A DNA stretch of 64,000 bases from Chitinophagales bacterium (GTDB lineage Bacteria > Bacteroidota > Bacteroidia > Chitinophagales > Saprospiraceae), in contig JAAFJT010000007.1 of NCBI GenBank assembly GCA_013298955.1, positions 21,160 to 85,159 on the forward strand, written 5' to 3'. How positions within the stretch are numbered: the first letter of the stretch is position 1; every line of letters begins with the position of its first letter. The position numbers were made by a program, and so were the translations under genes. Shown here in pieces: positions 594 through 57,885 of the stretch. The notes beneath the pieces were generated by a model. It was given only the letters and a program-made list of their open reading frames with translations. It was not told the DNA's origin and did not search any database.

Positions 594-775
594 AAATGGT
601 TATGTGAAGGCGGGTATATTGGAACGCGGATGACACGGATAGGGCGGATTCTCGCGGATTTTTTAGTTTTATACTTGAAAAATAAAATAAAATTTTGTAT
701 AAAATAGAAATCCGCGAGAATCCGCCCTATCCGTGTCATCCGCGTTCCAATATACCCGCCTTCACATAACCATTT
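594..775. repeat. CGGAT-family long palindromic element, copy A (68-nt perfect arms, 46-nt AT-rich loop)
   Basis: 594-661 (AAATGGTTATGTGAAGGCGGGTATATTGGAACGCGGATGACACGGATAGGGCGGATTCTCGCGGATTT) is the exact reverse complement of 708-775. The element starts 1 nt after the kinase stop codon. Confidence 0.9.
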
Positions 776-831
776 ATAGAGCTTGCTAAAATACCATTTT
801 TAGGGTATTTTAAATCTCACCCATTTCCTAC

Positions 832-839
832 TATATTTG
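832..839 (+). promoter_or_regulatory. Bacteroidota-type -7 promoter box (TAnnTTTG)
   Basis: TATATTTG upstream of the 952 ATG. Motif match only. Confidence 0.3.
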
Positions 840-951
840 CAGTATGTTCCCATGACACCTGCAATTTTCCCTCCCTATTGCGCTGCTTCTCCCCCAAGAA
901 GCCTTGTCGGTTTGCCATCTTACGATTCAATTCAAGAAACCGTTTAAAATT

Positions 952-11040: not shown

Positions 11041-11194
11041 TGGTTTTGGATACAATTGGAACGCGGATGACGCGGATTGAACGGGTGAGCGCGGATTTTT
11101 TTTGAAATTCAGTGCAAAATCCGTGAAAATTCAAAAAAAATCCGTGAAAATTCGCCCAATCCGCGTTATCCGTGTTCCCATTGTATCATCAAAA
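11041..11194. repeat. CGGAT-family palindromic element, copy B (GGATACAATTGG-terminus subtype with an internal extra module)
   Basis: TGGTTTTGGATACAATTGGAACGCGGATGACGCGGATT ... AATCCGCGTTATCCGTGTTCCCATTGTATC. The inner about 100 nt are nearly identical to copy C. Confidence 0.85.
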
Positions 11195-11494
11195 TGATCG
11201 CGTTTAAAGTATACAACAACTAATTGTTGTGAAATTAAAATTTTTATTATAATTTTGCATTGATTTTGATATTACATATAAATTTGTTAGATATTATAAC
11301 CTAATTAACTTATAAGCACTATCAAAACCCCGATATTCAATTTTTTCGACCGAAACAAACGTCCGACTGCTACTAACTATTTCTGGAAGGTTGTTTGCGT
11401 GCATTCAAAATGCCATGAAATCGTCCCGAAAGGGCGAAACTATCTAAAAATAAAACGGATTTAATTTTTCAGCAACGGAATCCATTATTATTAC

Positions 11495-12574: not shown

Positions 12575-12610
12575 CATTAAAGGCATAAAACTTGCGTCAG
12601 CAATTTCTGC

Positions 12611-12746
12611 TTTGTAGATTTTTGAAATAGGATGCGTATGATTGGAAGGATAAAAAGGATCTTTTGAGTTAAAATTTACGCTTTTCAACTGAAAAGTTCC
12701 TCAAAATCCTTCAAATCATAAGCATCTTATTTCAAAAATTTCCAAA
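12611..12746. repeat. long imperfect inverted repeat (36/41 nt) with an inner hairpin; possible AT-decayed relative of the CGGAT family
   Basis: 12611-12651 versus the reverse complement of 12706-12746. The left arm reads aaataGGAT gcgtatGAT tggaaGGAT aaaaaGGAT, four GGAT units at 9-nt spacing. It lies between convergent genes. Confidence 0.6.
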
Positions 12747-12771
12747 GTGGAATTACTAATGCTAAAAATAC

Positions 12772-28219: not shown

Positions 28220-28364
28220 TGGTTTTGGATACAATTGGAACGCGGATGGAGCGGGTTAGCGCGGATTTTTTTTGAAATTCAGTGCAAAATTCGTAAAAAT
28301 TCAAAAAAAATCCGTGAAAATTCGCCCAATCCGCGTCATCCGCGTTCCAATTGTATTGCAAAAC
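28220..28364. repeat. CGGAT-family palindromic element, copy C (same subtype as copy B)
   Basis: TGGTTTTGGATACAATTGGAACGCGGATGGAGCGGG ... AATCCGCGTCATCCGCGTTCCAATTGTATTGCAAAAC. It ends 17 nt upstream of the ruvB ATG. Confidence 0.85.
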
Positions 28365-30858: not shown

Positions 30859-32211
30859 ATGAATAACATTTTGATTATTGGAGCAGGTCGCTCCTCTACG
30901 GCGTTGATAAATTACGTCCTCGAAAAAGCCAAATTTTATAATTGGTTTGTAACGGTAGCGGATGCGAACCACGAAGTCGCCCTTAAAAAAATTAATGGGC
31001 ATCCCAATGGACGCGGCACTTGGTTGGATGCAACGAAAGTCAATGACCGCCGTGAATTGATTCAACGCGCTGATGTGGTGGTTTCACTCTTGCCGCCGCA
31101 CCTTCATTTTGAAGTGGCGCAAGATTGTATTAAATTAAAACGGCATCTGATTACGGCTTCTTATATTTCAAAACAACTCTATGCGTTAGGCGATGAAGCC
31201 CGTTCTAAAGCATTGATTTTCATGGGCGAAATGGGGCTTGACCCCGGTATTGACCACATGAGTGGTAAACAAAAAATTGATGAAATTATTGCAAAAGGGG
31301 GGCGATTGAAATCATTTCGGTCTTACACAGGCGGTTTGGTCGCGCCTGAATCGGATGATAATCCTTGGCATTATAAGTTTACTTGGAATCCGCGCAATGT
31401 GGTTTTGGCAGGGCAGGGAACGGCGCAATATTTGGAAGAAGGCAAGTTGAAATACATTCCGTATAACAGACTGTTTACGCAATATCGTACCGTCAATGTG
31501 CCTAATATGGGCGAATGGGAAGCCTATCCGAATCGGGACTCGTTGTTATACAGAGAGTTGTATGATTTGGGTCCGATTCCCAATTTATTGAGAGGAACAT
31601 TGCGGCATAAAGGTTTTTGTGATGCTTGGAATGCGATCATTCAAATTGGGTTGACGGATGGCTCTTTTCCGATTTTGGATTCTGAAGAAATCACCTATCA
31701 CGAATTGATGGAATCTTTTGTTTCCAACAAAGCAACAGGTTCTTCGGTCAAGGAAAAAATTGCCAATATGTTGGGCGAACCTTCTGCGGATTCGCCTGTG
31801 ATGCAAAAATTGGAATGGCTTGGTTTGTTTCGGAAGAAAAAATTGCGTATCAAAAGTGCGACTCCTGCGTTGATTTTAGAACAATTATTGTTGGAAAAAT
31901 GGAAATTGAAAGATACCGAGCAGGATATGGTTATCATGCAGCACGAATTTGAATACGAATTGAACCGACAAATGCGGCGATTGACTTCCACATTGGTTTT
32001 GAAAGGAACGGATGGTAATAATACCGCGATGTCTCGATTGGTCGGTTTGCCGATTGGTATTTTTGTGAAATTAGTGATGTTGGGCAAAATTAATTCGATT
32101 GGGGTCAATATTCCTGTATTGAAAGAAGTTTATGAGCCTGTTTTAGAAGAATTAAAAGAATATGGAGTCATTTTTCAAGAAAAAGATGAAGTTCTAAAAG
32201 ATAAGGTGTAG
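30859..32211 (+). CDS. saccharopine dehydrogenase family oxidoreductase (LYS9-like)
   Basis: Rossmann motif ILIIGAGRSS. GLDPGIDHM motif. Confidence 0.8.
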   Translation: MNNILIIGAGRSSTALINYVLEKAKFYNWFVTVADANHEVALKKINGHPNGRGTWLDATKVNDRRELIQRADVVVSLLPPHLHFEVAQDCIKLKRHLITASYISKQLYALGDEARSKALIFMGEMGLDPGIDHMSGKQKIDEIIAKGGRLKSFRSYTGGLVAPESDDNPWHYKFTWNPRNVVLAGQGTAQYLEEGKLKYIPYNRLFTQYRTVNVPNMGEWEAYPNRDSLLYRELYDLGPIPNLLRGTLRHKGFCDAWNAIIQIGLTDGSFPILDSEEITYHELMESFVSNKATGSSVKEKIANMLGEPSADSPVMQKLEWLGLFRKKKLRIKSATPALILEQLLLEKWKLKDTEQDMVIMQHEFEYELNRQMRRLTSTLVLKGTDGNNTAMSRLVGLPIGIFVKLVMLGKINSIGVNIPVLKEVYEPVLEELKEYGVIFQEKDEVLKDKV

Positions 32212-32326
32212 AGCGAATTGAAACGCGGATGACACAGATTGGGCTGATTTTCGCGGATTTTTTGTTGTTTTAAAACAAAAAATCCGCGAAAATCAGCCCA
32301 ATCTGTGTCGTCCGCGTTCCAATTCT
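32209..32326. repeat. CGGAT-family palindromic element, copy D (GAGCGAATTG-terminus subtype); overlaps the stop codon of the upstream gene
   Basis: TAGAGCGAATTGAAACGCGGATGACACAGATTGGGCTGATTTTCGCGGATTTTTT ... mirror image. Confidence 0.9.
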
Positions 32327-32394
32327 ATCCTCACCTCACAGATGATGTATCTGTTTTAATTCTCAAAAACATTTTTTTATTCCAATAGACCCTT

Positions 32395-35793: not shown

Positions 35794-35797
35794 GTTT

Positions 35798-35946
35798 AGG
35801 ATACAATTGGAACACGGATGACGCGGATTTTCGCGAATTTTTAACCTTGCATAGATTTTTATTTTTATAATAGATTAAGATTCAAAAATAAAAAAAATCC
35901 GCGAAAATTCGCCCAATCCGCGTCATCCGCGTTCCAATTGTATCCT
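35798..35946. repeat. CGGAT-family palindromic element, copy E (left arm internally truncated)
   Basis: AGGATACAATTGGAACACGGATGACGCGGATTTTCGCG ... AATCCGCGAAAATTCGCCCAATCCGCGTCATCCGCGTTCCAATTGTATCCT. It starts 5 nt after the stop codon. Confidence 0.85.
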
Positions 35947-36138
35947 AATTTTCCAAAGTAGAAACGCTGAGGAGTTTTAAAGTCAATCATTTAAAAAAAA
36001 TAATTTAAAAAACATAAATTATTCTAATTTAATGCAAAACATATGAATTTTATTATAAATATATTTCAAATGATATGGAATCCCATTGACCAAATCATTG
36101 GAAACGCAATGAATTTGCTCACAAGTCGCCTAAAAAAG

Positions 36139-37758
36139 ATGGATTTATATTTGATAAAATCATTTATACCTCCTTTTTTTGTGGCTTTTTGCATTGCTTT
36201 ATTCGTGTTAGTGATGCAATTTTTATGGGTTTATATCGACGAAATCATGGGAAAAGGACTGACCTTTTTCGAGTTGACCGAATTGGTTTTCTACCTTTCG
36301 ATGACCATGGTTCCGAATGCCCTTCCGTTAGGCGTATTGATTTCGAGCGTCATGGTTTTAGGGAATTTAGCAGAACGATACGAATTGGCGGGTTTAAAAT
36401 CAGCAGGCATTTCCTTGACACGTATTATGCTGCCGTTAGCGATAACCGCTTTTTTGATTGCTTGCGGTTCTCTTTTTGTGTCTGATAGGGTGATTCCTTG
36501 GGCAAATTTGCAATTTCACTCTCGTTTTTACGACATTCGCAAGGCAAAACCAACCCTTGCCTTTGAAGAAAATGTGTTTAATGACGAATTTCAAGATTAT
36601 ACCATGCGCATTGGCAAAAAAAGTGCGGATGGCAGGCAATTGAAAGATGTGATGATTTACGGGAATCAAAGCAGTGGGAATGCCGATTTGGTCAATCAAA
36701 TCATGGCAAAACAAGGCGAAATGTTCACTACCAAAGACCGTCAATATATTGTTATGAACCTCCAAGATGGGGTTCAATACCAAGAAACGATGAATAATAG
36801 AGATGGCGTAAAACATTATCCTTTTGTTAGAATCAAATTTAAATCATGGCAAAAAATATTTGATTTAACCCAATTTGAACGCCAAAATACCAATCAAGAA
36901 TTGTTTAAAGGACATCAAAAAATGCTTACGACCACTCAATTGGGCAAAGCCATTGATTCGATTGAACAAGTTGGGATTGGTGGACGGTGTATGGAATTGA
37001 AAGTCAATACTTTAGATTATTATCGGGCTTTCAAACGCAAAGCGGGTTCGGCTGAAAAAGCTGCGCCGAGTTCAGGGGGCGGTGTCGTTTCAACGGTTAA
37101 CACGATGTCTTCGACCACCGCAATAGACACCGCGAAGGCAAAAGCAAAACCTTCCAAGATTCAGCACATAATGGATTCGATGTCTAATAGTCGCTTATCA
37201 GAAACGCCTTTTTCAAAAATTGGAGCTACGGCGGTAGCGAATACGCCACTCGTGAAGCCTTCTAAATGGTATGTTGCGCAATTTGATTCCATTGATTTGA
37301 TTCCGTCCGACCAAAAAGGAGGGGTGCGCAATCGGGCGGACTCGTATATACGCGGCGTGCAAAGCAGTATTGAATCGACCTTGCAATCGTTGTCGATTAC
37401 GAGTAAATCGTTGTCCAAATTTATCTATGAATTGCATTTGAAATACAGTATTGCCGCAATTTGCTTTATTTTCCTGTTTATTGGTGCGCCGATGGGGGCA
37501 ATTGTGCAAAAAGGGGGCTTTGGTTATCCGATTTTGGTGGCGATATTCTTTTTTATGTTATACATGATTGCAATGATTTATTGCAAAAATTTGAATGATG
37601 TGCAAGCCGTACCTGCGATTTGGGCGGCATGGATTCCGTGTTTGGTGATGTTGCCGATGGGCTGCATTTTAACTTGGCGAGCGATGAATGATTATAAAAT
37701 CCTGCAAATCGATTTTACCAAATGGATTCCAAAACGATTTAGACAACCAACGGTGTAG
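36139..37758 (+). CDS. LptF/LptG family permease (YjgP/YjgQ) with a long periplasmic insert
   Basis: MDLYLIKSFIPPFFVAFCIALFVLVMQFLW is typical of LptF/G. The C-terminal TM triplet is present. ATG 36139 is preferred over the upstream ATG 36043. Confidence 0.75.
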   Translation: MDLYLIKSFIPPFFVAFCIALFVLVMQFLWVYIDEIMGKGLTFFELTELVFYLSMTMVPNALPLGVLISSVMVLGNLAERYELAGLKSAGISLTRIMLPLAITAFLIACGSLFVSDRVIPWANLQFHSRFYDIRKAKPTLAFEENVFNDEFQDYTMRIGKKSADGRQLKDVMIYGNQSSGNADLVNQIMAKQGEMFTTKDRQYIVMNLQDGVQYQETMNNRDGVKHYPFVRIKFKSWQKIFDLTQFERQNTNQELFKGHQKMLTTTQLGKAIDSIEQVGIGGRCMELKVNTLDYYRAFKRKAGSAEKAAPSSGGGVVSTVNTMSSTTAIDTAKAKAKPSKIQHIMDSMSNSRLSETPFSKIGATAVANTPLVKPSKWYVAQFDSIDLIPSDQKGGVRNRADSYIRGVQSSIESTLQSLSITSKSLSKFIYELHLKYSIAAICFIFLFIGAPMGAIVQKGGFGYPILVAIFFFMLYMIAMIYCKNLNDVQAVPAIWAAWIPCLVMLPMGCILTWRAMNDYKILQIDFTKWIPKRFRQPTV

Positions 37759-37966
37759 AGCGAATTGGAACGCGGATGACGCAGATAGGGCGAATTTATA
37801 CATTGCGGCGGGTGGTTTTGGATACAATTGGAACGCGGATGACGCAGATAGGGCGGATTTTCACGGATTTTTTTAAAAAAAAACAAAAAATCCGTGAAAA
37901 TCCGCCTATCTGCGTCATCCGCGTTCCAATTTATATCCTTCGTAGTTTCAATTTATATCCTTCGTA
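37756..37966. repeat. composite CGGAT-family locus (copy F): an orphan left arm, then a complete element, then an 18-nt flank duplication
   Basis: Orphan left arm at 37756-37795 (GAGCGAATTGG type). Full element at 37813-37937 (GGATACAATTGG type). CAATTTATATCCTTCGTA occurs twice (37927 and 37949). Confidence 0.85.
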
Positions 37967-38004
37967 ATTTTAGTTAAAAGTTCCATCTTTTTTTAATCTT
38001 TTTT

Positions 38005-40665: not shown

Positions 40666-40674
40666 AAAAAACAC

Positions 40675-40682: not shown

Positions 40683-40705
40683 CAGCGTATCAACAAACAC
40701 AATTG

Positions 40706-42580: not shown

Positions 42581-42596
42581 TGCAACTATCAAATGT

Positions 42597-42703
42597 AATA
42601 CAATTGGAACGCAGATGACACGGATTGGGCGGATTTTCGCGGATTTTAAAAAAAAATCTGCGAAAATCCGCCCAATCCGTGTCATCCGCGTTCCAATCGT
42701 ATT
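42597..42703. repeat. CGGAT-family palindromic element, copy G, filling the gap between convergent genes
   Basis: AATACAATTGGAACGCAGATGACACGGATTGGGCGGATTTTCGCGGATTTT-aaaaaaa-mirror image. It lies 17 nt from one stop codon and 5 nt from the other. Confidence 0.9.
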
Positions 42704-42708
42704 ATAAT

Positions 42709-43833
42709 TTAAATATTTATTAAATTAATAATTTGTAAGGCATTCAGTTCATCAGAAAAGATATTTTCTAAAATAATGCGTCTTTTTTCAAGGATTGTTG
42801 TCGAAAAAGGTATTTGCGCTACTTGATGCAACATTTGCAACATTTGTTCGGGTGTATCTGCGACATGACAGAGCGAATCTAAACCTGTCTGCTGCACCAT
42901 CGGTGTATTAACAATACAATGTCGCCCCGAATAAAGGGCATTCAATAATTTCAATTTTAAGCCTGCGATTTGAAAAGAAAGTAGGATTTGAATATGACTT
43001 TTTTGAATCAATTCATCCATCAATTCATCATCTGGATTTGCAATAATTTGAATATTTTTAAATGGTTTTGCTTTGATTATCAACAACTTAGATGGATTCA
43101 ATCCTGCAATGGTGAAGGGCATATCCGAATGGGCGAACACTTTTTCAATTAAAAACAAAGCCGCTTGTTCATTATCGGAAACACTTAATTTGCCATGAAA
43201 CAATGCACCGTGTCCCATGCCTATCGGAGCATTTACGGTATGATGTCCATGAAAAGGCAGTATCAAATGTGTATTTGGATGAATCTTTTTAAAATAATTA
43301 AAATCATTCGGCGCAATCGCCAGCAGGGTAGGGTTTTGTTTTAAAACCTTTTTTTCAAAAGATTGTAGTTTGATGGATTCCCATTTGAAAAAGAGTTGCT
43401 TCCACCATTTGGGTTCTAAATGGGCTAAATTTTGATAATATTGCCATTCTATATTGTGCATTCTAACCATATATTGCCTGTCACAATTCAACAATTTATT
43501 TAAATAAAAGCAAGTATGCAAACCTTCAAATAGGATAGGATAATTATCTTCCTTTAATCTTTTGAGCAAATCGGGATGCGCTCTTGTATTTACAATGAAA
43601 GGTTGAGCCGATAAAATTTTCCAAAAAAAAACGTCACGCGGATAATAATAAACCCTTGTGCATAATTTTTCCAAAATTATATTTGGTATCCTATCTCCAT
43701 ATTGGAAATTATGTAAAATTATTTTAATATTTTGTGCTTGTAATGCTTTGATTTTATAAAAAACATCTATCACGCCACCATAATTGGCAGGGAAAGGAAT
43801 ATCAAAACTAATAATATGCAAAAAAGAGTTCAT
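42709..43833 (-). CDS. glycosyltransferase (GT-B fold, GT4/group-1-like)
   Basis: N-terminal HIISFDIPFPANYGGVIDVFYKIKAL and a C-terminal sugar-nucleotide-binding-like half. Assigned by overall resemblance only. Confidence 0.5.
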   Translation of the reverse strand: MNSFLHIISFDIPFPANYGGVIDVFYKIKALQAQNIKIILHNFQYGDRIPNIILEKLCTRVYYYPRDVFFWKILSAQPFIVNTRAHPDLLKRLKEDNYPILFEGLHTCFYLNKLLNCDRQYMVRMHNIEWQYYQNLAHLEPKWWKQLFFKWESIKLQSFEKKVLKQNPTLLAIAPNDFNYFKKIHPNTHLILPFHGHHTVNAPIGMGHGALFHGKLSVSDNEQAALFLIEKVFAHSDMPFTIAGLNPSKLLIIKAKPFKNIQIIANPDDELMDELIQKSHIQILLSFQIAGLKLKLLNALYSGRHCIVNTPMVQQTGLDSLCHVADTPEQMLQMLHQVAQIPFSTTILEKRRIILENIFSDELNALQIINLINI

Positions 43834-43995: not shown

Positions 43996-44706
43996 ATGTA
44001 TAGAAATCCAATTTTCATTAACCTTTTTTGCACCTTTTTACTTTTACCCTTAGCAAGTCAAGCACAACGTTTTGAAACGGGTCTTCATGCTGGATTTAGC
44101 TATTTTATGGGCGACATCACAGACCGCATGAATGCCATCAATGTCGGTTTTGGCGGACATTTTACGTATTGCCCACATCCCAAAATAGCAGCGCGCCTTG
44201 ATTTGATGAATCTATTTCTCTCAGGAGATGATAAAGGTTCTCCGAGCGCGTATAAACAAAATCGAGGTTTTAAGTTTTTATACAATGTACAGGAAGTCAG
44301 TTTAATGGGGGAATTACGCCCGTTTGATAGCGATAAATTGAGTCATATCGGGCATTTTGAACAAAGTATCACACCTTACGGATTTGGAGGCGCAGGCTTA
44401 TTGACCCGAGTGAGTGGTAAAGCACAAGCACCTTTGGTGGAAACTTCACCGTTTCCAGAAGCAGGCGATACGAAAACGACTTTCCCTTTTTTGATTGGCG
44501 GTGGCGGTTTGCGTTGGCATTTCGCACAGCGTTATAAATTGAGTGCCGAAGGCAGTGGTCGCTATTACTTTTCGGATTATGTGGATGGTATCAGTAATTC
44601 GGCAAACCCGAAAAGCAAAGATTTATCTTTTTTTGGCAATTTGACGCTCACTTATATTTTGGATATGCCGATTGGTGTGCGCAAACGCAATTGGTTTTTA
44701 TTGTAA
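43996..44706 (+). CDS. outer-membrane beta-barrel protein (DUF6089-like)
   Basis: Signal peptide ..LLLPLASQAQ. Alternating amphipathic strands. GLHAGFSYFMGDI start. Confidence 0.55.
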   Translation: MYRNPIFINLFCTFLLLPLASQAQRFETGLHAGFSYFMGDITDRMNAINVGFGGHFTYCPHPKIAARLDLMNLFLSGDDKGSPSAYKQNRGFKFLYNVQEVSLMGELRPFDSDKLSHIGHFEQSITPYGFGGAGLLTRVSGKAQAPLVETSPFPEAGDTKTTFPFLIGGGGLRWHFAQRYKLSAEGSGRYYFSDYVDGISNSANPKSKDLSFFGNLTLTYILDMPIGVRKRNWFLL

Positions 44707-45010
44707 ATGTTGTAAATTGGAACGCGGATGACACCGATTGGGCTGATTTTCGCGGATTTTTTAAAAAAAAATCCGCGAAAATCCGCCCAATCCGTACCAT
44801 CCGCGTTCCAATTTATAACACGCCCCAACTTACTTTGGATGTGCCGATTGGTGTGCGCAAACGAAATTGGTTTTTATTGTAAATGTTGTAAATTGGAACG
44901 CGGATGACACCGATTGGGCGGATTTTCGCGGATTTTTTTTTAAAAAATCCGCGAAAATCCACCCACTCTGCGTCATCCGCGTTCCAATTTATAACACGCC
45001 CCAACTTACT
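44659..45010. repeat. 176-bp tandem duplication (44659-44834 and 44835-45010); each unit is the last 48 nt of the DUF6089 gene (15 codons plus stop) plus one CGGAT-family element (copies H1 44714-44813 and H2 44890-44989)
   Basis: TTGGAT[A/G]TGCCGATTGGTGTGCGCAAACG[C/A]AATTGGTTTTTATTGTAAATGTTGTAAATTGGAACGCGG... repeats with period 176. Confidence 0.9.
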
Positions 45011-50033: not shown

Positions 50034-50141
50034 TTTAGTAATATGGCGTTTATGTAAATAAATATAATTTGTTAAATTAGATTGCAAAAATACAAAAATA
50101 ATCAATTTTCAAACCTATTGTCTTTATAAAAGGATTTTTAG

Positions 50142-51116: not shown

Positions 51117-51133
51117 CGTTGATTTATTAGATT

Positions 51134-51177
51134 AGATGGATTCATTGGATTATTATAATAATCCAATGAATCCATCT
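51134..51177. repeat. 44-nt perfect palindrome
   Basis: AGATGGATTCATTGGATTATTA immediately followed by its exact reverse complement. Confidence 0.9.
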
Positions 51178-51198
51178 TAAAAAAAGCATAGAAATAGT

Positions 51199-51206
51199 TA
51201 CTTTTG
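51199..51206 (+). promoter_or_regulatory. Bacteroidota-type -7 promoter box (TAnnTTTG)
   Basis: TACTTTTG lies 84 nt upstream of ATG 51290. Confidence 0.35.
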
Positions 51207-51289
51207 TTGCGCTTTAACGCATGCAGCATTGCGTTTTTAATCCTAAAAATCAGTCTCTGTTTATACATTTTTAAATTAAATCATAACGT

Positions 51290-54115
51290 ATGAAAAATTT
51301 TACGATTTTAATGAGCATTTTGCTCGCCTCCTGTATGCAGCGCGTGCAAGCACAGGTCACTTGTAACCCTGTTTTTCCGTGTACAGACGATGTTGTTTCC
51401 ATTTATTACAATGCCAATGAAGGAAATCGCGCCCTTGCGAATGAAACAGGTGATATTTTTATGCATGCGGGCGTACTTACGAGTACCAGTACGGGCCCAG
51501 GTGATTGGAAATTTGTGCGCACCACTTGGGGTTCAACCGATACGGCATTTAGAATGTGGCCACTTGGGAATGGCATTTACGCGAAAAGTTATAATATTCG
51601 CTCTTTTTACAACATTCCACAAGGGGAAACGGTGTTGAAATTAGCTTTTGTTTTTCGGAATGGCGCAGGTTCAACGGTGGGCAGAACGGCTGATGGAAGC
51701 GATATTTTTTACGATTTAGGTTGTAATGGTGCGGCGTTTCAAACCTTGGTGCTTCAGCCCAACTCTACAAGCCTATTGACAACGATTGGGGCAACGATTC
51801 CTTTCAAAGGAGCCGCTTCTGCGAATGCAACCCTCTCCTTGAAAGATAATAATACGGTTTTAACAACGGTCAACAATGCGCGTAACTTGGATTACACCCT
51901 CAATGTGGCAACTGGGGGCAATCATACGGTTCAATTTATCGCTAATAATGGCGGCACAGAGGTCATCAAATCGTTTAGTTACACGATTCCAAATACGACG
52001 GTGGTGCGCGACGCGCCGCAAGGCACTCAATTAGGCGCGAATATCAATGCAGCAGGCACGTCTGTAACGTTGATGTTGCAAGCTCCGAATAAAAATAATG
52101 TATTTGTTTTAGGCAGTTTCAACAATTGGCAATTAGACACCGCCTATCAAATGTATAGAACAACGGATGGAAAATCGTGGTGGAAAACCATCCCACTTAA
52201 TTCGGGTACGATTTACACGTACCAATATTTGGTGGATGGCACGATTAAAATCGCAGACCCGTTAAGTACGTTGATATTAGACCCTGTTGGCGATAAGTCG
52301 ATTTCGGCTGTTACGTATCCGAATCTGCCTGCGTATCCGACAAATAAAACGACTGGTTATGTTTCGGTTTTGGAGCCGGGCAAAGCACCTTACACTTGGC
52401 GCGTTCCCAATTTCCAACGCCCGCCCAAACAAGATTTGATTATTTACGAATTATTAGTGCGTGATTTTGTCGCAAGACACGATTATCAAACCTTGATTGA
52501 TAGTATTAATTACCTTAAATCATTGAAAATCAATGCAATCGAATTAATGCCCGTTCAAGAATTTGATAATAATGAAAGTTGGGGTTACAATCCGAATTTC
52601 CATAACGCATTGGATAAATATTATGGAACAGCCGATAAATTTAAAGAATTTATTGATGTTTGCCATCAAAACGGAATTGCCGTGATTATTGATGTCGTGT
52701 TCAATCATGCTTGGGGAACCAGTCCTTTGACAAAATTATATTGGGATGCAGCGAATAATCGCCCCGCAGCAGATAATCCTTGGTTGAATCCTGTGGAAAA
52801 ACACCCGTATAATGTGGGTTATGATTTCAATCATGAAAGCGAATATACGCGCAATTACATGTTTCGTTGTTTGAAAAACTGGTTGGCTGAGTACAATATT
52901 GATGGCTATCGATTTGATTTATCCAAAGGTTTTACCCAAAAAAATACGTTAGGCGATGTAAACGCATGGGGTGTGTATGACCCATCTCGGGTGAATATTT
53001 GGAATCGTATTTACGATTCGGTACAAGCGTTTAATGCAGGTGCTTATGTGATTTTGGAACATTTGGGCGATAATGAGGAAGAAAAAGTCATGGCGAATCG
53101 CGGCATGATGACTTGGGGGAATATGTGGTATAGTTACAAACAATTTACCATGTGTTGGCCCAATAATCAATTAAAAGGCGTTTCTTCACAGGGGAGAGGT
53201 TGGACGGTTCCACATTTGGTTGGTTATATGGAAAGCCATGATGAACAACGAAATATGTATGAAAATATTAACTATGGCAATAGTGGACAAACGCCGATTT
53301 ATGATATTAAAAACCTTGAAACGGCTCTAAAACGGGTTGAATTAGCGAATGCGTTTTTCTACACCGTTCCCGGTCCAAAAATGTTGTGGCAATTTGGGGA
53401 AATGGGTTATGATATTAGCATTGATTTCAATGGTCGAGTGGGCAATAAACCGATTCGCTGGGATTATTTGACGCAACCTGCCCGCAAGCGGTTGTATGAT
53501 GTTACCCGAAATATCATTCATTTGCGCACCTCGAATCAAACCATTTTTAGAGATGGCACTTATAATTCAGATGATTTAAATGTTGAATACGCGAAGCATT
53601 TTCACGTCAGTCATCCGAATATGAACACCACTATTATTGGAAATGGCGGCATTATTGCAACGGATATCGTTCCTTATTTTCAAAATACTGGTACTTGGTA
53701 CAACTATTTGACAGGCGAAACGGTCAATATTACTTCTACAACGGCTCCAATTCGGTTGTTGCCGGGTGAATATCGGATTTACACGAGCGTCCGCCAACCT
53801 GTGCCACCTGCGGGCTACGTCAATTTCCCGAATGGCGATGCTAAAATCGTTGAATTATTAAATGATTTTCAAATCTATCCCAATCCAAGCGTTGCCAACG
53901 CGCCCTCGTATTTGGGTTATTCTTTGAAACAATCGGCTGATATTCAATGGTCTGTAATCAATCAAGTGGGGCAAATCGTTTATCAATCGGCTGTAACGCG
54001 TAGAAATGCGGGCAGTCACCAAGATAATTTAATCCCAGATTTGGCTTCTGGAACGTATATGATTCGATTGAATATCAACGGAGCTATCGTCACCCAAAAA
54101 TGGACGGTACAATAG
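51290..54115 (+). CDS. GH13 alpha-amylase family enzyme with a CBM48-like module and a T9SS C-terminal sorting domain
   Basis: GH13 regions I DVVFNHA, II DGYRFDLSKGF, IV YMESHDE. CBM-like VLGSFNNWQ...YQYLVDG. C-terminal FQIYPNPS... tail. Signal peptide present. Confidence 0.85.
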   Translation: MKNFTILMSILLASCMQRVQAQVTCNPVFPCTDDVVSIYYNANEGNRALANETGDIFMHAGVLTSTSTGPGDWKFVRTTWGSTDTAFRMWPLGNGIYAKSYNIRSFYNIPQGETVLKLAFVFRNGAGSTVGRTADGSDIFYDLGCNGAAFQTLVLQPNSTSLLTTIGATIPFKGAASANATLSLKDNNTVLTTVNNARNLDYTLNVATGGNHTVQFIANNGGTEVIKSFSYTIPNTTVVRDAPQGTQLGANINAAGTSVTLMLQAPNKNNVFVLGSFNNWQLDTAYQMYRTTDGKSWWKTIPLNSGTIYTYQYLVDGTIKIADPLSTLILDPVGDKSISAVTYPNLPAYPTNKTTGYVSVLEPGKAPYTWRVPNFQRPPKQDLIIYELLVRDFVARHDYQTLIDSINYLKSLKINAIELMPVQEFDNNESWGYNPNFHNALDKYYGTADKFKEFIDVCHQNGIAVIIDVVFNHAWGTSPLTKLYWDAANNRPAADNPWLNPVEKHPYNVGYDFNHESEYTRNYMFRCLKNWLAEYNIDGYRFDLSKGFTQKNTLGDVNAWGVYDPSRVNIWNRIYDSVQAFNAGAYVILEHLGDNEEEKVMANRGMMTWGNMWYSYKQFTMCWPNNQLKGVSSQGRGWTVPHLVGYMESHDEQRNMYENINYGNSGQTPIYDIKNLETALKRVELANAFFYTVPGPKMLWQFGEMGYDISIDFNGRVGNKPIRWDYLTQPARKRLYDVTRNIIHLRTSNQTIFRDGTYNSDDLNVEYAKHFHVSHPNMNTTIIGNGGIIATDIVPYFQNTGTWYNYLTGETVNITSTTAPIRLLPGEYRIYTSVRQPVPPAGYVNFPNGDAKIVELLNDFQIYPNPSVANAPSYLGYSLKQSADIQWSVINQVGQIVYQSAVTRRNAGSHQDNLIPDLASGTYMIRLNINGAIVTQKWTVQ

Positions 54116-54121
54116 TAGTAC

Positions 54122-54227
54122 TATTGAAACGCGGATGACGCAGATTGGGCGGATTTTCACGGATTTTTTTATAAAAAAATCCGTGAAAATCCGCCCAATC
54201 TGCGTCATCCGCGTTCCAATTCGCTCG
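54122..54227. repeat. CGGAT-family palindromic element, copy I (cleanest compact copy)
   Basis: TATTGAAACGCGGATGACGCAGATTGGGCGGATTTTCACGGATTTTTTT-ata-AAAAAAATCCGTGAAAATCCGCCCAATCTGCGTCATCCGCGTTCCAATTCGCTC. Confidence 0.9.
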
Positions 54228-54263
54228 TAAGATTCCAATTTATTTATAAAATAAGAACTCAAT

Positions 54264-55901
54264 ATGTCAACAACTCAACAACATCCAAAAGGTTTGCGTT
54301 TCTTGTTTTTAACCGAAATGTGGGAGCGATTCGGTTACTATCTGATGATAGGGATTTTCATGCTCTATATGAAAGACACGCAAAAAGGTGGACTTTCCAT
54401 TCCGCACAAAGAAGCAACCGATATTTTTGGCACTTTCATCGCCTTAGTCTATGTAACGCCCTTCATCGGCGGCATGCTTGCGGATAGAGTATTAGGTTAT
54501 CGGCGTTCCATCATCATTGGGGCAACCTTGATGGGTTTCGGCTATTTGGGACTTGCCATACAAGGTATGACGGCTTTTTGGATTTCTTTGCTGCTCATCA
54601 TTCTTGGAAATGGCTTTTTCAAACCCAATATTTCCATTTTATTGGGCAATTTGTACAATGATGAACCTTACAAGGCACATAAAGATACAGGTTACAATAT
54701 TTTCTATATGGGCATCAATGTCGGTGCGTTTATATGCAATTTTTTTGCAGCCTATTTGCGCAACACTTTTAGTTGGGGACACGCGTTTGCCGCAGCAGGA
54801 GTGGGCATGTTTATCGGTTTAGCAGTATTCATTTTGGGTGATAAACATTATGCACACGCAGACATTCAAGCTAAAAAGCAGGAAAATGAACAATCAATTG
54901 CTGTCGTGATGAGTTCCGTTTTGATACCTGCTATTCTGGCGGGCGTATTGGGCTGGATGATTCCGGGCAATATTTTTGGTTCGGATTCGACCGATGCTTT
55001 TTTGATAGCCTGTTTGCCAATCATTGCTTTTTATTTGAATATATGGTTTAAAGCAGCCGCACATGAACGCGAACCGATTGCGGCTTTATTGGCGATTTAC
55101 GCAGTTGTGATTGTTTTTTGGGCAATTTTCAAACAAAATGGTACGACATTGACGAATTGGGCAGAATATTATACGGATAGAGCCGTTCCAACGATGTTGC
55201 AAACGCCCGCAGATGCATTGGGCATGACCCAAACATTGACGGCTAAAAAAGACAGTTTCCCCCATTACGATTCCAAATTTCGCGCTCCAAAAGATGCCGC
55301 AGGAAAGGTTGTGAAAACGTATTCGACGCATCCATACTTTATCAACGCGCCCGCGACATTGCCCGCAGAAGGCAAATCGGTCCAATTATTTTCAACCGAA
55401 TTATTTCAATCCATCAACCCATTTTTCGTCGTTGTTTTAACGCCTTTTGTGGTTTGGTTTTTTGGACGCTTACGCAAACGAAATATAGAACCGACAACCG
55501 CTACTAAAATAGCAGGTGGATTATTCATTTCTGGGCTTTCGACCATTATCATGGTTTTTGCCGTTTTAGCTTGTCATAACGGATTGGATAAAAGTTCGAT
55601 TGGCTGGTTATTTGGAACGTATGGCGTAATCACCGTAGGCGAATTATTTTTAAGTCCGATGGGTTTATCCTTAGTTTCCAAACTCGCACCTGTACGCATT
55701 TCCGCGCTCATGATGGGCGGTTGGCAATTAGCGACTGCGATTGGTAATAAATTATCAGGCGTTTTAGCAGGTTTATGGGATGGTTATGAAGATAAAACTA
55801 CTTTTTTTTGGACGAATACAGGGATGATATTTGCGGCGGCGGCGGTTATTTTCGTCATGTTGCGCTGGTTAAATCGCATTATTCGACAATATGTCGTTTA
55901 A
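54264..55901 (+). CDS. POT/PTR2 family peptide:proton symporter
   Basis: PTR2 signature FLFLTEMWERFGYYLMIGI plus a second motif GNGFFKPNIS. Confidence 0.9.
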   Translation: MSTTQQHPKGLRFLFLTEMWERFGYYLMIGIFMLYMKDTQKGGLSIPHKEATDIFGTFIALVYVTPFIGGMLADRVLGYRRSIIIGATLMGFGYLGLAIQGMTAFWISLLLIILGNGFFKPNISILLGNLYNDEPYKAHKDTGYNIFYMGINVGAFICNFFAAYLRNTFSWGHAFAAAGVGMFIGLAVFILGDKHYAHADIQAKKQENEQSIAVVMSSVLIPAILAGVLGWMIPGNIFGSDSTDAFLIACLPIIAFYLNIWFKAAAHEREPIAALLAIYAVVIVFWAIFKQNGTTLTNWAEYYTDRAVPTMLQTPADALGMTQTLTAKKDSFPHYDSKFRAPKDAAGKVVKTYSTHPYFINAPATLPAEGKSVQLFSTELFQSINPFFVVVLTPFVVWFFGRLRKRNIEPTTATKIAGGLFISGLSTIIMVFAVLACHNGLDKSSIGWLFGTYGVITVGELFLSPMGLSLVSKLAPVRISALMMGGWQLATAIGNKLSGVLAGLWDGYEDKTTFFWTNTGMIFAAAAVIFVMLRWLNRIIRQYVV

Positions 55902-56582
55902 TGGAGGCATTTTGAGCGAATTGGAACGCGAATGACGCAGATTGAGCGGATTTTCACGGATTTTTTTTAAAATCCGCGAAAATCCGCCCAATATTTTCGT
56001 CATGTTGCGCTGGTTAAATCGCATTATTCGACAATATGTCGTTTAATGGAGGCATTTTGAGCGAATTGGAACGCGGATGACGCAGATTGTTTTTTAAAAT
56101 CCGCGAAAATCCGCCCAATATTTTCGTCATGTTGCGCTGGTTAAATCGCATTATTCGACAATATGTCGTTTAATGGAGGCATTTTGAGCGAATTGGAACG
56201 CGGATGACGCAGATTGGGCGGATTTTCACGGATTTTTTTTAAAATCCGCTAAAATCCGCCCAATATTTTCGTCATGTTGCGCTGGTTAAATCGCATTATT
56301 CGACAATATGTCGTTTAATGGAGGCATTTTGAGCGAATTGGAACGCGAATGACGCAGATTGAGCGGATTTTCACGGATTTTTTTTAAAATCCGCGAAAAT
56401 CCGCCCAATATTTTCGTCATGTTGCGCTGGTTAAATCGCATTATTCGACAATATGTCGTTTAATGGAGGCATTTTGAGCGAATTGGAACGCGGATGACGC
56501 AGATTGAGCGGATTTTCACGGATTTTTTTTAAAATCCGCGAAAATCCGCCCAATCTGCGTCATCCGCGTTCCAATTCGCTCG
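55848..56582. repeat. tandem array x5 (unit 145 bp; one 127-bp variant); each unit is the last 54 nt of the POT gene, a 13-nt spacer and a right-arm-truncated CGGAT element. Only the last unit carries the complete right arm.
   Basis: ATTTTCGTCATGTTGCGCTGGTTAAATCGCATTATTCGACAATATGTCGTTTAATGGAGGCATTTTGAGCGAATTGGAACGCG... starts at 55848, 55993, 56120, 56265 and 56410. Confidence 0.95.
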
Positions 56583-57743
56583 CTATTGTATCGTTTTCAA
56601 TAATTCGGATGCTTCATCATGTCTTTCACCACTTTCTTTACCATGTTCGATGGCATTATTTAACACTTTTTGAGCGCACCGTTCTTCGCCCATTTTCACA
56701 TATAATTGAGCTAAGGTCAAAAAATACAGTTGTTTTTTCTCTTTTTGCAAGGCTCTTTTAGCCCATTTGACCGCTTTTTTCAACATTTTGGGGTCATCCA
56801 CTACTTCATAAAACGTTTGAGCCGTCTCATTCAATTCTTCCGCACTATCCTCAAATTGTTTGAAATACTGAACCGCAGCATTCGCATAATTCGTTCTATC
56901 GCCCTTCAATCGATAATAAGTCATCTGATAATTAGGAATCATGCGTTTTGCCTTTTTCGGGTACGTCAAAGCAATCAAAGAATCGGCAATAGGCAACGGC
57001 GGTAACGCTTTTTCATTATGCAATTTATCCGTTAATAGGTTTTGAATTTTAATTTCAATATCAGATTTACCAAAAATATTTTGAAAAGTATCCTTATTTT
57101 CCACCAAAAAACGATATAAAGGCGTATCGGTCGTTTCCACCATACGATAAATCAACCCTAAATGGGCTTGACTGCGCCAATCGGTTTGTGTATTCAAGTA
57201 GGTTTCCACGATTTTGATACACTTCGGGTCTTGTGCATCAGATAATTTTTGAATATAATTTCTCAAAAAAAGAGCATCACGATTCCCCGTTGCAAAACGG
57301 TTATTCCATGCGTCAAGCCTGTCTTCTTGATTCAAGGCAGCTTTCCCAAGTTGTAAAAAAACATCTATTTCTTGAAAACCCACAGCCCGATGCACCGCTT
57401 TTCCAGTAGCATTGATGAACAAAAAAGTGGGATAGGCTTTGATTTGATACGCCTGAGCGAGCGCGAGTCCATCGCCTTTTTCCATATCCATCTTGACATT
57501 GATAAATTGTTCATTATAAAAACGACTTATTTTGGGATGGGTAAAAACATCGCGGTTCATGGCTTTACAAGGCGCACACCAAGTGGTGTATGCGTCCAAA
57601 AAAATCAATTTTTCATATTTTTTAGCACTATCTAAGGCAGTTTGCCAATTTTCATGGATAAATTGAATGCCTTTTGTGGGGTTCGACTGCGCAAAAAGAA
57701 CTTTTGGCAGGAAACAAAAGAGGAGCAACCGAATATAACTCAT
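56583..57743 (-). CDS. secreted thioredoxin-fold protein (WCAPC) with a helical repeat C-terminal domain
   Basis: Signal peptide. DAYTTWCAPCKAM CxxC motif. Paralogue of ORF 57899-59068. Confidence 0.75.
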   Translation of the reverse strand: MSYIRLLLFCFLPKVLFAQSNPTKGIQFIHENWQTALDSAKKYEKLIFLDAYTTWCAPCKAMNRDVFTHPKISRFYNEQFINVKMDMEKGDGLALAQAYQIKAYPTFLFINATGKAVHRAVGFQEIDVFLQLGKAALNQEDRLDAWNNRFATGNRDALFLRNYIQKLSDAQDPKCIKIVETYLNTQTDWRSQAHLGLIYRMVETTDTPLYRFLVENKDTFQNIFGKSDIEIKIQNLLTDKLHNEKALPPLPIADSLIALTYPKKAKRMIPNYQMTYYRLKGDRTNYANAAVQYFKQFEDSAEELNETAQTFYEVVDDPKMLKKAVKWAKRALQKEKKQLYFLTLAQLYVKMGEERCAQKVLNNAIEHGKESGERHDEASELLKTIQ

Positions 57744-57774
57744 AGTTTCAATTAATTAAAATAATATACGCACG

Positions 57775-57885
57775 TAGAGCAATTGGAACGCGGATGACAC
57801 GGATTTGGCAGATTTTCGCGGATTTTTTTAACAAAAAATCCGTGAAAATCCGCCCAATCCGTGTCATCCGCGTTCCAATAGTATC
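57775..57885. repeat. CGGAT-family palindromic element, copy K, between the two thioredoxin-fold paralogues
   Basis: TAGAGCAATTGGAACGCGGATGACACGGATTTGGCAGATTTTCGCGGATTTTTTT ... AATCCGTGAAAATCCGCCCAATCCGTGTCATCCGCGTTCCAATAGTATC. Confidence 0.9.

Follow-up and report, generated by a model that had tools for sequence, protein, structure and literature searches.

Introduction

Palindromes of about 100 bases each, recurring at a density of roughly one per 5 kb, raise the question of what such elements are, what constrains their sequence and how they came to be dispersed. We addressed this question in a 64,000-nt stretch of contig JAAFJT010000007.1 (GCA_013298955.1) from a Chitinophagales bacterium (positions 21,160-85,159, forward strand), referred to here as the window. 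A first-pass annotation had listed 12 loci, had described substitutions mirrored between arms, and had attributed the mirroring either to selection for pairing or to templating of one arm from the other.

The palindrome family and its genomic setting

The dense family that had been claimed was real, as the element was present at 12 of 12 loci. A 46-nt arm profile (nhmmer) gave 35 arm matches in the window, covering every locus and essentially nothing elsewhere, and the 14-mer GGAACGCGGATGAC, allowing up to 2 mismatches, occurred 31 times compared with 0.29 expected, a count that none of 100 shuffles reached. An inverted-repeat finder returned arms of 47-113 nt with 80-99% complementarity, and the predicted hairpins of the window copies ranged from -72 to -99 kcal/mol (z = -11 to -20). 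The 46-nt arm, found at all 12 loci and in agreement with the consensus proposed earlier, consisted of ATTGGAAC followed by four R-C-N-G-A-T units at spacings of 9, 9 and 10 nt. The true element ends lay ca. 10-13 nt outside ATTGGAAC, across outer motifs (GGATACA or GAGCGA) that were less well conserved.

Copy A (591..778; arms 618-663 and 707-751) started at the stop codon of the ORF at 3-593, and its palindrome reached 23 nt farther on each side, giving 71-nt arms, 99% complementary, around a 46-nt A/T-rich interior. Copy B (11042..11199) had arms at 11055-11100 (+) and 11136-11181 (-), with a partial inner arm at 11116-11132. Copy C (28220..28364), of the same subfamily as B, was missing one 9-nt unit from its left arm and lay in the divergent gap between a Na/H exchanger gene and ruvB; as annotated, the element ended 17 nt before the ATG of ruvB, which was identified by its Pfam domains. 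Copy D (32204..32336; arms 32217-32262 and 32278-32323) overlapped the stop codon of the ORF at 30859-32211. Copy E (35796..35948) lay 2 nt past the stop of the ORF at 33700-35793, with a left arm (35806-35842) one 9-nt unit short, a right arm at 35893-35938 and the outer motif TTAGGATACA/TGTATCCTAA. Copy F (37756..37970), overlapping the stop of the ORF at 36043-37758, had arms at 37764-37799 (+, truncated), 37827-37872 (+) and 37886-37930 (-), followed by a 22-nt tandem repeat of 2.2 copies at 37923-37970.

Copy G (42591..42709; arms 42603-42647 and 42652-42697) lay in the gap between the convergent ORFs 40649-42580 and 42709-43833 and was unchanged in L175, a strain 99.5% identical. Copies H1 (arms 44716-44761 and 44767-44812) and H2 (arms 44892-44937 and 44943-44988) made up a pair at 44658..45010, also in a convergent gap, formed by a 176-nt tandem duplication that included the last ca. 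49 nt of the ORF at 43996-44706. Copy I (54116..54227; arms 54123-54168 and 54175-54220, 98% complementary) lay immediately past the stop of the ORF at 51290-54115. Array J (55847..56582) held ca. 4.6 tandem units of 145 nt, each running from the 3'-terminal 54 nt of the ORF at 54264-55901 through a spacer, a left arm and a loop to a truncated right arm; the full right arm was present in the last unit only (56482-56575). Both the H pair and the array, at 55847-56554, were thus tandem duplications that took in the 3' end of the upstream gene. Copy K (57775..57885; arms 57782-57827 and 57834-57879) lay 13 nt past the stop of the ORF at 57899-59068 (-). A further palindrome at 12605..12752, absent from the original list, lay between convergent ORFs and had 70-nt arms (80% complementary) in which AGGAT/ATGAT units recurred every 9-10 nt; it gave no match to the CGGAT arm profile and is probably a diverged relative.

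By ORF coordinates, 10 of the 12 loci lay 0-13 nt from a stop codon, and copies G, H and J occupied the gaps between convergent genes, both as first described. Such placement is equally expected of a host-useful 3'-end RNA element, namely a 3'-UTR hairpin that ends, processes (through RNase III) or stabilises transcripts and is kept near stops by selection; the link to nuclease genes described below would then be secondary, those genes bearing the same insulating stem. The positions near stop codons, the three filled convergent gaps and the extreme stability of the predicted hairpins are consistent with this account, as is the cutting by RNase III of intervening sequence (IVS) stems of the same build (PMC4990558). 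However, no U tract followed the stem, the T run of the window elements being in the loop, and a terminator scan of 42000-58000 flagged none of the six element loci in that range, finding 14 sites compared with 18.5 expected; the elements do not have the form of an intrinsic terminator, a short G+C-rich stem with a U tract immediately behind it. Copy C, moreover, sits in a promoter region, and tandem half-arm arrays such as those at L174, L083 and L005 would make no sense as terminators.

The family matched no Rfam family. An Rfam scan of the window gave no match at the gathering score, and a scan of 20 related loci gave a single match, to an unrelated Flavo-1 RNA; below the threshold lay generic miRNA hairpins and TwoAYGGAY, the latter scoring 30 bits where 43 are required. 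The window scan returned no rRNA gene, every copy lying between protein-coding genes, and we found no description of the CGGAT palindrome family in the searchable literature. The window had also been said to carry no transposase, and a Pfam scan of 37 of its 38 main ORFs agreed, returning no transposase, integrase or RAYT; the 38th ORF was RuvB. The non-autonomous character proposed earlier was supported for the dense window family.

The same arms enclose GxxExxY genes

An arm HMM trained on the window copies alone was applied to 80 metagenome loci selected for the GxxExxY protein. It matched 42 of them, nearly always with a + arm just 5' and a - arm just 3' of the GxxExxY ORF, and control loci (63 kb) gave neither arm-HMM matches nor RCNGAT clusters. 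Most of the other GxxExxY loci carried inverted repeats built in the same way from different xGAT motifs. The full cassette consisted of two inverted arms of ca. 45 nt enclosing a GxxExxY (PF13366/TIGR04256) gene of ca. 125 codons, each arm bearing the terminus AT(T/A)G(G/A)AC and behind it, at intervals of 9-10 nt, 3-5 R-C-N-G-A-T units. GxxExxY genes with CGGAT-family arms were also found at genome loci L006, L026 and L083 and in the cultured Flavobacterium sp. MAHUQ-51. Locus L083 belongs to a MAG, JBDLWG, that was 93-97% identical to the window across 8 kb; there the GxxExxY gene was embedded among CGGAT arms, and a 99%-identical copy was present in L174. The arms of the window repeats and those of the cassettes are one sequence family. 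A six-frame hmmsearch found no GxxExxY ORF in the window, which makes its copies ORF-less; the absence of the gene also made the link to the cassette invisible to the first-pass annotation.

The GxxExxY protein has a PD-(D/E)XK nuclease fold with an intact D...E-x-K site, in which D67, E77 and K79 were invariant. The best PDB matches of its AlphaFold model (pLDDT 91) were a restriction-endonuclease-like protein, Cas4, lambda exonuclease and Hjc. The family comprises 21,558 clusters at 50% identity, and the searchable literature described no function for it.

A complete palindrome lay on either side of the gene in some cassettes (L106, L107, L116 and L144), as would be expected if GxxExxY genes were passengers settled inside palindromes of the REP/REPIN type, mobilised by or co-evolving with a single-copy RAYT (IS200/IS605-like HUH) or other transposase elsewhere in the genome. 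The association between gene and arm, however, was near-obligatory from the gene's side, which is unlike a passenger, and neither the window nor the other loci inspected contained a RAYT or other transposase.

Sequence, not pairing, is the conserved feature of the arms

The mirrored examples named earlier were verified in copy A (GATAGGGC and ATTCTCG), copy D (ACACAG and GGGCTG) and copies I and F2 (GCAG and TCACGG), but mirroring of copy-specific changes was not general, as unmirrored differences occurred in B, C, E, G, H1, H2 and K. In the window, 14 non-consensus cells were mirrored, compared with 5.7 ± 1.9 for shuffled partners (0 of 2000 shuffles reached 14), and 27 were unmirrored (26 one-sided and 1 differing on both arms), one-sided changes being about twice as frequent as mirrored ones. 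The mirrored states were mostly common subfamily polymorphisms at arm positions 18, 20 and 37; one was private to a single copy, and two others occurred in 3 and 4 of 22 arms.

Selection for pairing, whether of RNA or DNA, was not supported as the main constraint by covariation, by mismatch types or by the N positions. The RNAalifold covariation term was +0.65, with double-sided changes in 6 of 33 pairs, concentrated at dimorphic R and N motif positions, and covariation was restricted to three dimorphic positions. Arm mismatches in gene-bearing cassettes, for which the transcript strand is known (n = 81), comprised 19 sense-G·U, 19 antisense-G·U and 43 transversions, so that the G·U types were not biased to either strand and transversions made up the majority. 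Across 70 elements from several phyla, the C, G, A and T of each unit were 0.91-1.0 conserved (mostly at least 0.96), and N and spacer positions were free to vary; at the N positions and at spacer positions 33-35, arm-to-arm concordance was no higher than random. It is the phased C..GAT sequence that is under constraint, and not base pairing. The covariation term, the lack of G·U asymmetry, the majority of transversions and a motif conserved across phyla with no pairing enforced at N positions also argue against a host-useful RNA, which we regard as an unlikely explanation.

The excess of mirrored changes would be explained if both arms descended from progenitors that were already palindromic, with occasional template switching within the palindrome during replication. 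Templating of one arm from the other, the second option of the first-pass annotation, could apply to the few mirrored changes that are rare or private, and quasipalindrome template switching (the Ripley model), by which a change in one arm is copied to the other without selection for pairing, could account for those at copy A position 34 and copy D position 29. This is a mutational process, however, rather than an element family, and it leaves the dispersal, the phased motif and the link to a nuclease gene unexplained.

Deletion forms and copying of whole elements

The arms at L059 enclosed just the first 22 codons of a GxxExxY ORF (hhalign probability 97.9%, E = 3.7e-13), and L059 is an internal-deletion intermediate. 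In a Ferruginibacter MAG, the mini-hairpin TGCGCCAGCA was common to the ORF-less copies and the 3' UTR of the cassette; counting against derivation from the cassette, a GGAC unit variant was present in the ORF-less copies and absent from the gene-bearing one. An asymmetric interior and one degenerate left arm were common to copies B, C and L031, as was the outer motif GGTTTTGGATACA; the like was true, for interior and left arm, of L008, L014, L087 and L064. As these dispersed copies share asymmetric interiors, whole elements have been copied to unlinked loci. Like MITEs, the palindromes have terminal inverted repeats in common with a larger gene-bearing element, of which deletion derivatives exist. 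We consider it very likely that they are related to GxxExxY cassettes, lack the ORF and were copied as units.

A different order of events would apply if GxxExxY were a homing endonuclease that targets the centre of empty palindromes, the gene entering existing palindromes by double-strand-break repair and the palindromes themselves arising and multiplying otherwise, for example by slippage or template switching. Small PD-(D/E)XK homing endonucleases are known, such as I-Ssp6803I, and the symmetric centre of the palindrome (GGATTTTT/AAAAATCC) would be a fitting site for a homodimer. At one conserved site in two Flavobacterium lineages, the GxxExxY gene showed 0 amino-acid changes and 4.4% nucleotide divergence, far less than the flanking genes (12-16% different). 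Gene-bearing and empty copies of one genome fell in different subfamilies, and protein and arm distances in 28 cassettes were weakly correlated (Mantel r = 0.11; 603 of 5000 permutations reached r), which gave no support for co-evolution of protein and arm. Homing nevertheless seems rather improbable, as L059 indicates a change from full cassette to empty element and not the reverse, and the arrival of empty elements at new loci together with their asymmetric interiors would be left unexplained.

Turnover at orthologous sites

Four orthologous sites were compared in related genomes, none of which was a clean empty site. The occupying family or the copy number differed at each, the families being different and the build the same. 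The ortholog of the copy C site held a CATAG-type palindrome in L182 and an AGGAT-type palindrome in L184, and L184 carried one arm 3' of ruvB that was missing from the window. In strain L063, the copy I site held a CGGAT hairpin of different composition, and array J was absent, with a 57-nt TTGGAT-type hairpin in its place. The L063 ortholog of copy K had an identical right arm and ca. 8 changes in the left arm, affecting all four CGGAT motifs; this decay of one arm without compensation speaks against a host-useful RNA, in favor of which, conversely, site occupancy was kept between related genomes even when the family changed. Unit number, arm number and even the occupying family shift quickly between related genomes. 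A direct repeat of at least 3 nt was found at the ends of 1 of 35 full elements, and with no target-site duplication classical transposition is unsupported. Mobility by simple insertion was thus not supported, with 0 of 4 orthologous sites empty and no target-site duplication.

Continued occupancy of orthologous sites also bears on the REP/REPIN reading, as long-lasting site occupancy has been reported for REPINs. Elements of that kind would likewise be dense, intergenic, placed beside stop codons and free of target-site duplication. REPs have been defined as imperfect palindromes of 20-40 nt with a GTAG or CGTC tag at one end, in two superfamilies (PMC3733652); the window elements differ in having 46-nt arms of four phased 6-nt units that begin with ATTGGAAC and lack a GTAG/CGTC terminus. 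We consider an origin of the REP/REPIN type very unlikely.

Comparison with known systems

The REP/BIME/REPIN elements and their RAYTs are nonetheless similar to the window family in several respects, being short, dense, non-autonomous intergenic palindromes, often past stops and between convergent genes, with no target-site duplication, with sites occupied over long periods, and with a tie to a small single-domain protein gene that is itself flanked by repeats. The partner protein here, however, has a PD-(D/E)XK fold, whereas RAYT has an HUH/Y1 fold, and the CGGAT-family arm sequence recurs in several phyla.

Bacterial MITEs (Correia/NEMIS, ERIC, RUP and Nezha) similarly include gene-less derivatives with the terminal inverted repeats of a larger element, internal-deletion intermediates, subfamilies with characteristic interiors, and dispersed copies at which short-read assemblies break; of these families, Correia and ERIC give rise to transcripts that RNases process. 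The window elements differ in lacking target-site duplication, in having a parent element without a DDE transposase, in arms that make up nearly the whole element, and in the presence of different families at the same site in related genomes.

The 23S rRNA IVS of Leptospira and Coxiella, which carry an S23p (four-helix-bundle) ORF (PF05635), offer a further parallel, with a long inverted-repeat stem of short tandem units around an optional small ORF, a sporadic distribution across phyla, ORF decay and ORF-less forms. In Coxiella, the IVS stem, which RNase III cuts, has two to three GACAGAT units in tandem ahead of the S23p ORF, their number differing between strains (PMC4990558); the GACAGAT unit fits the R-C-N-G-A-T of the window family. 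PF05635 genes were also flanked, in tight intergenic gaps outside rRNA, by inverted arrays of phased 8-10-nt motifs, identical in build to GxxExxY arms and quite different in motif, and the build itself therefore needs no GxxExxY protein. The window elements differ from IVS in lying between protein-coding genes, at about one per 5 kb, and not in rRNA helices (helix 25 or 45 of 23S); their associated ORF encodes a PD-(D/E)XK nuclease and that of IVS a four-helix bundle, and the xGAT motif was constant in GxxExxY arms and lineage-variable in the PF05635 arms sampled. The uncatalogued palindromes, the flanks of GxxExxY genes and those of IVS-protein genes have one architecture in common.

Proposed explanation and implications

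The reading that we favor, and consider probable as a whole, is that the CGGAT palindromes are ORF-less, non-autonomous, MITE-like derivatives of an IVS-like GxxExxY nuclease cassette, the nuclease being a putative agent of their recognition and mobilisation. For that last part taken separately, recognition and mobilisation of the arms by the GxxExxY nuclease, our confidence is tentative. The phased motifs would be protein-binding sites, most likely for a GxxExxY nuclease working in trans, which may nick or cut at or near the arms; spread or replacement would then proceed via recombination or repair, not by DDE-type transposition. Cutting followed by repair would account for both the absent target-site duplications and the repeated occupation of hairpin-bearing sites beside stop codons. 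Any transcript made from the elements would offer RNase III a substrate in its 45-55-bp stem, as do the 23S rRNA intervening sequences, whose build is the same.

This common architecture ties the palindromes of the window to the very widespread GxxExxY cassettes, a link that we consider highly probable. It reduces the questions of GxxExxY function and of IVS origin and mobility to one 125-residue protein, one 46-nt DNA/RNA substrate and four mutable motif positions, and cultured hosts are available in Flavobacterium sp. MAHUQ-51, F. swingsii, F. lacus, Brumimicrobium and Geomonas sp. Red32. The elements also have practical consequences for genomics: they terminate short-read contigs, assemblies of the same strain break at them, and tandem duplications that take in the 3' ends of genes arise from them. 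They were hypervariable among strains 93-99% identical, which bears on MAG quality and makes their use in strain typing of Bacteroidota conceivable.

A bolder interpretation, possible but doubtful at present, is that xGAT palindromes and the GxxExxY nuclease form an unrecognised class of selfish element, in which the nuclease recognises phased 6-nt sites in its own arms. A minimal nuclease would then power the spread or replacement of elements at sites that bear hairpins, leaving no target-site duplication, and the class would be a sister to the four-helix-bundle cassettes that form 23S rRNA intervening sequences. How bacterial rRNA intervening sequences originate and move has been an open question since about 1990 (PMC4990558). 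If this interpretation is true, IVS-type elements would gain their first concrete mechanism of mobility, and two very large families of "hypothetical" proteins would gain a function.

Occurrence and placement of the palindromes

A profile of the 46-nt arm, the inverted half of the CGGAT element, matched 35 arms in the window and recovered palindromes at all 12 loci listed by the first-pass annotation; the core 14-mer occurred 31 times, against an expectation of 0.29. Arms delimited by an inverted-repeat finder were 47-113 nt long with 80-99% complementarity, and the predicted single-strand hairpins had 45-55 bp and -72 to -99 kcal/mol (z = -11 to -20). The reported preference for gene ends was borne out by the ORF map: 10 of the 12 loci began or finished 0-13 nt from a stop codon, copies G, H and J occupied whole convergent gaps, and copy C did end 17 nt 5' of the ruvB start codon. 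As had also been claimed, mobility genes were missing, with no transposase, integrase or RAYT detected by a Pfam scan of 37 of the 38 main window ORFs. The scanned genes were ordinary Bacteroidota housekeeping content (T9SS-tailed proteins, YidC, LptF/G, GidB), and the 38th ORF, identified separately, was RuvB.

The palindromes seem to have seeded local duplication, as both the tandem duplication of copies H1/H2 (44658-45010; unit of 176 nt) and tandem array J (55847-56554; 145-nt unit, about 4.6 copies) include the 3' end of the upstream gene. In array J, the right arm and the gene have a short stretch of microhomology, CGTCAT, where the units join. Short-read contigs of the same strain (L175-L181, 99.5-100% identical), which were recovered by exact-protein look-ups of window genes and were of no use for locating empty sites, ended inside or at the edge of CGGAT elements, indicating that these repeats fragment assemblies.

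Other repeats were present as well. A second palindromic and tandem family of like build, with CATAGG units (AACACATAGGTCACATAGGTTTTCATAGGTCACATAGG) and TAGGCGCGTATAA tandem units, occupied the gap between two minus-strand genes at 8888-9460. It recurred at the ruvB-upstream site of the relative L182 and in locus L174, where a tandem (GACACATTGG) x 10 at the contig end (1-100) was followed by a CATAGG-type palindrome. The first annotated codons of a 1294-residue minus-strand ORF at 5035-8919, which contained a Walker A motif (GGHGTGKTH) and matched no Pfam family at 1e-5, overlapped a CATAGG arm; translation therefore probably starts at a more internal codon. A perfect palindrome with 43-nt arms (GGGCATGTAACAAAATTAGTAGTTGGGAAATTTATTTCACGTG) between convergent genes at 23229-23317, with a relative in L182 at 18308-18384, appears to be a third, unrelated family.

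Arm structure and the role of pairing

Alignment of 140 arms from 70 elements (window and fetched loci) resolved the arm into ATTGGAAC, four R-C-N-G-A-T units at positions 9, 18, 27 and 37 (spacing 9, 9, 10), and a T run. Within units, the C, G, A and T positions were conserved at 0.91-1.0, mostly at least 0.96; A and G were about equally frequent at R, N was mostly G yet free to vary, and the spacers were variable. Whole 9-nt units had been gained or lost in the left arms of C, E and the fetched locus L056. Beyond ATTGGAAC lay some 10-13 nt of weaker-conserved outer motifs (GGATACA, GAGCGA) that were common within subfamilies. Copy-specific palindromic flanks, at first suggestive of elements inserted into host hairpins or grown by templating, were mostly accounted for by the outer motifs GGATACA, GAGCGA and CCAATG, with the exception of a 23-nt extension of copy A. 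Target-site duplication was likewise rejected, being present in only 1 of 35 elements. The elements matched no Rfam family at gathering and E-value thresholds. Nine same-orientation arms with a period of 96-100 nt at 3450-4386 of L005, a Flavobacterium MAG locus, adjoined a Flavo-1 RNA (RF01705, 79.5 bits); a CRISPR array was rejected there, as the intervening "spacers" were repeated too and the arms form inverted pairs elsewhere.

The placement beside stop codons would be compatible with a rival reading of the palindromes as a host RNA 3'-end element; a canonical terminator was rejected, a scan of 42000-58000 having flagged none of the six element loci in that range. The first-pass annotation had described copy-specific substitutions mirrored between arms and had offered selection on pairing as one explanation. 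The mirroring stood in part: 14 non-consensus cells in the window were mirrored versus 5.7 +/- 1.9 expected, while 27 were not (26 one-sided, and 1 with both arms off consensus in different ways). Of the 14, 11 were dimorphisms common in the family (positions 18, 20 and 37), and the sole copy-private mirrored cell was position 34 of copy A; the variants mirrored at position 29 (copy D) and position 24 (A and F) occurred in 3 and 4 of 22 arms, respectively. Arm identity within elements exceeded that of shuffled partners in the window (0.944 vs 0.911, reached by 1 of 5000 shuffles), in all short palindromes (0.846 vs 0.795, reached by 0 of 5000), and in cassettes, in which inverted arms enclose a gene (0.859 vs 0.770, again 0 of 5000).

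Selection on pairing was not supported as the main constraint. Across 18 compact elements, the RNAalifold covariation term was +0.65 and double-sided changes occurred in 6 of 33 pairs. Cassette arms, whose sense strand is fixed by the enclosed gene, had 19 sense-G·U, 19 antisense-G·U and 43 transversion mismatches; an RNA-strand signature (G·U vs A·C) was thus rejected for lack of bias. The ortholog of copy K in the relative L063 had an identical right arm and about 8 uncompensated changes in the left. The few covarying pairs, the absence of G·U bias and the uncompensated L063 arm indicated that the phased motif is conserved and pairing is not, which argues against the host RNA element. The modest mirrored excess fits descent from palindromic progenitors together with occasional templating.

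Association with GxxExxY genes

Scanning a single genome from each species with ATTGGAACGCGGATGAC yielded at least 93 loci. Those among the matches listed were mostly from Bacteroidota (Saprospiraceae, Ferruginibacter, Flavobacterium, Brumimicrobium), with real arm pairs also in Ignavibacteria, Calditrichaceae, Geomonas, Litorilinea and a Methanoperedenaceae MAG. About 70 chance matches to a 17-mer query are expected at this database size; some single matches in distant phyla are chance, and eight of the listed loci had no arm (L015, L017, L034, L053, L057, L072, L080, L091). In L006 and L026, arms 430-470 nt apart enclosed a gene of the GxxExxY family of small predicted PD-(D/E)XK nucleases (TIGR04256, 116 bits; PF13366, 123 bits). 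An arm profile built from the window only matched 42 of 80 metagenome loci fetched with the GxxExxY protein, usually with a + arm preceding the ORF and a - arm following it, each at most a few tens of nt away, and most of the other loci had inverted repeats of like build with CTGAT, CAGAT, CGGAC or TATGAT units. Control loci (63 kb) gave 0 arm-profile matches and 0 motif clusters. In cultured Flavobacterium sp. MAHUQ-51, arms filled the intergenic gap on either side of the GxxExxY gene. The window had no GxxExxY ORF; MAG JBDLWG, 93-97% identical to it over 8 kb, had the gene amid CGGAT arms (L083), with a 99%-identical copy in L174.

A REP-RAYT-like system carrying the GxxExxY gene as a passenger was considered as a rival. 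RAYT genes were missing from the scanned window ORFs, and the association of arm and gene was near-obligatory from the side of the gene. A Mantel test for co-divergence of protein and arm gave a weak, non-significant correlation. Carriage by phages or plasmids was rejected: no GxxExxY match was found in 50,697 phage records, and plasmids gave one weak arm-like match only, on a Runella plasmid. Literature searches on the arm sequence, Bacteroidetes REP/MITE elements and GxxExxY/PDDEXK_3 found nothing relevant; no description of the CGGAT family or of the arm-gene association was found in Rfam or the searchable literature, and one elsewhere is possible.

Homologue searches with the protein gave 3,129 close homologues and, at E <= 1e-3, a family of 21,558 clusters. 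The AlphaFold model (pLDDT 91) has a predicted PD-(D/E)XK fold, with D67, E77 and K79 invariant. The closest solved structures in a fold search were a restriction-endonuclease-like protein from Spirosoma, Cas4, lambda exonuclease and Hjc, and a sequence search against solved structures gave no match. Some members (P0361-P0365 and others) were fusions of about 250-270 residues with two tandem GxxExxY domains. Membership of a defence system was rejected, with sub-threshold Cas4-like similarity only in PADLOC and no PHROG family. Between the Flavobacterium loci L186 and L187, the gene differed at 17 of 384 nt with 0 amino-acid changes, while the flanking genes differed at 153 of 951 and 40 of 333 nt (12-16%), indicating that the protein is strongly constrained or recently spread. 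In the 3' arm, 6 of 45 nt differed, all of them in R, N or spacer positions.

Derivation and turnover of elements

Between its arms, locus L059 kept only the first 22 codons of a GxxExxY ORF (hhalign probability 97.9%, E = 3.7e-13), joined to the right arm; the locus is an internal-deletion intermediate. Window copies B and C and L031 of a relative, at unlinked loci, had in common both an asymmetric interior and a degenerate left arm. In a Ferruginibacter MAG, four ORF-less copies had a common 70-nt interior, whose mini-hairpin also occurred in the 3' UTR of that MAG's cassette. Asymmetric interiors common to unlinked copies indicated that whole elements were copied to new places.

Orthologous sites differed in their occupants. 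In L063 (93-97% identical), a 57-nt TTGGAT hairpin stood in place of array J, site I held a CGGAT hairpin of different composition, and site K an orthologous element with one arm decayed. In L182 and L184, from species about 80-86% identical, the flanks of the ruvB-upstream gap were conserved and its occupants differed: a CATAG-type palindrome in one, and in the other an AGGAT-type with a TTGGAAT terminus. A CGGAT arm lay 3' of ruvB in L184 and none there in the window, and tandem half-arm number differed between L174 and L083. These comparisons demonstrated rapid replacement at fixed hairpin-bearing sites. No empty site was found among the orthologous sites compared, so simple insertion of CGGAT elements was not demonstrated. 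A further rival is that the GxxExxY gene homes into pre-existing palindromes; the truncated ORF in L059 points instead to derivation from cassettes, and homing of the gene would leave the copying of ORF-less elements unexplained.

Relationship to 23S rRNA intervening sequences

The 23S rRNA intervening sequence (IVS) of Coxiella, which is excised by RNase III, has in its stem 2-3 tandem GACAGAT units, variable in number among strains, directly before the S23p ORF, and hypotheses of a transposition remnant or mobile element have long been on record (PMC4990558). Its ACAGAT unit matches the R-C-N-G-A-T of the window arms. All sampled genes of the S23p four-helix-bundle family PF05635 (the L143 gene and three further lineages) had phased 8-10-nt motifs arrayed in inverted orientation on their two sides, with a motif that varied by lineage (GTATTGAG, TAAGAT, TTGGTC). 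The phased inverted-array build was thus common to GxxExxY and PF05635 genes, whereas the xGAT motif was specific to GxxExxY. The PF05635 genes of three lineages (L194, L214, L143 and loci fetched alongside) were 62-67% identical to the L143 query and lay directly downstream of a CN_hydrolase gene, followed in L194 and L214 by a Fer4_20/Pyr_redox_2 gene.

The best-supported reading would place the window palindromes, as MITE-like forms lacking the ORF, in an IVS-like cassette family in which full members carry the gene for the GxxExxY nuclease. The near-obligatory association of arm and gene, and a motif conserved without conserved pairing, suggest that this nuclease may recognise the phased motifs and drive the spread of the family.
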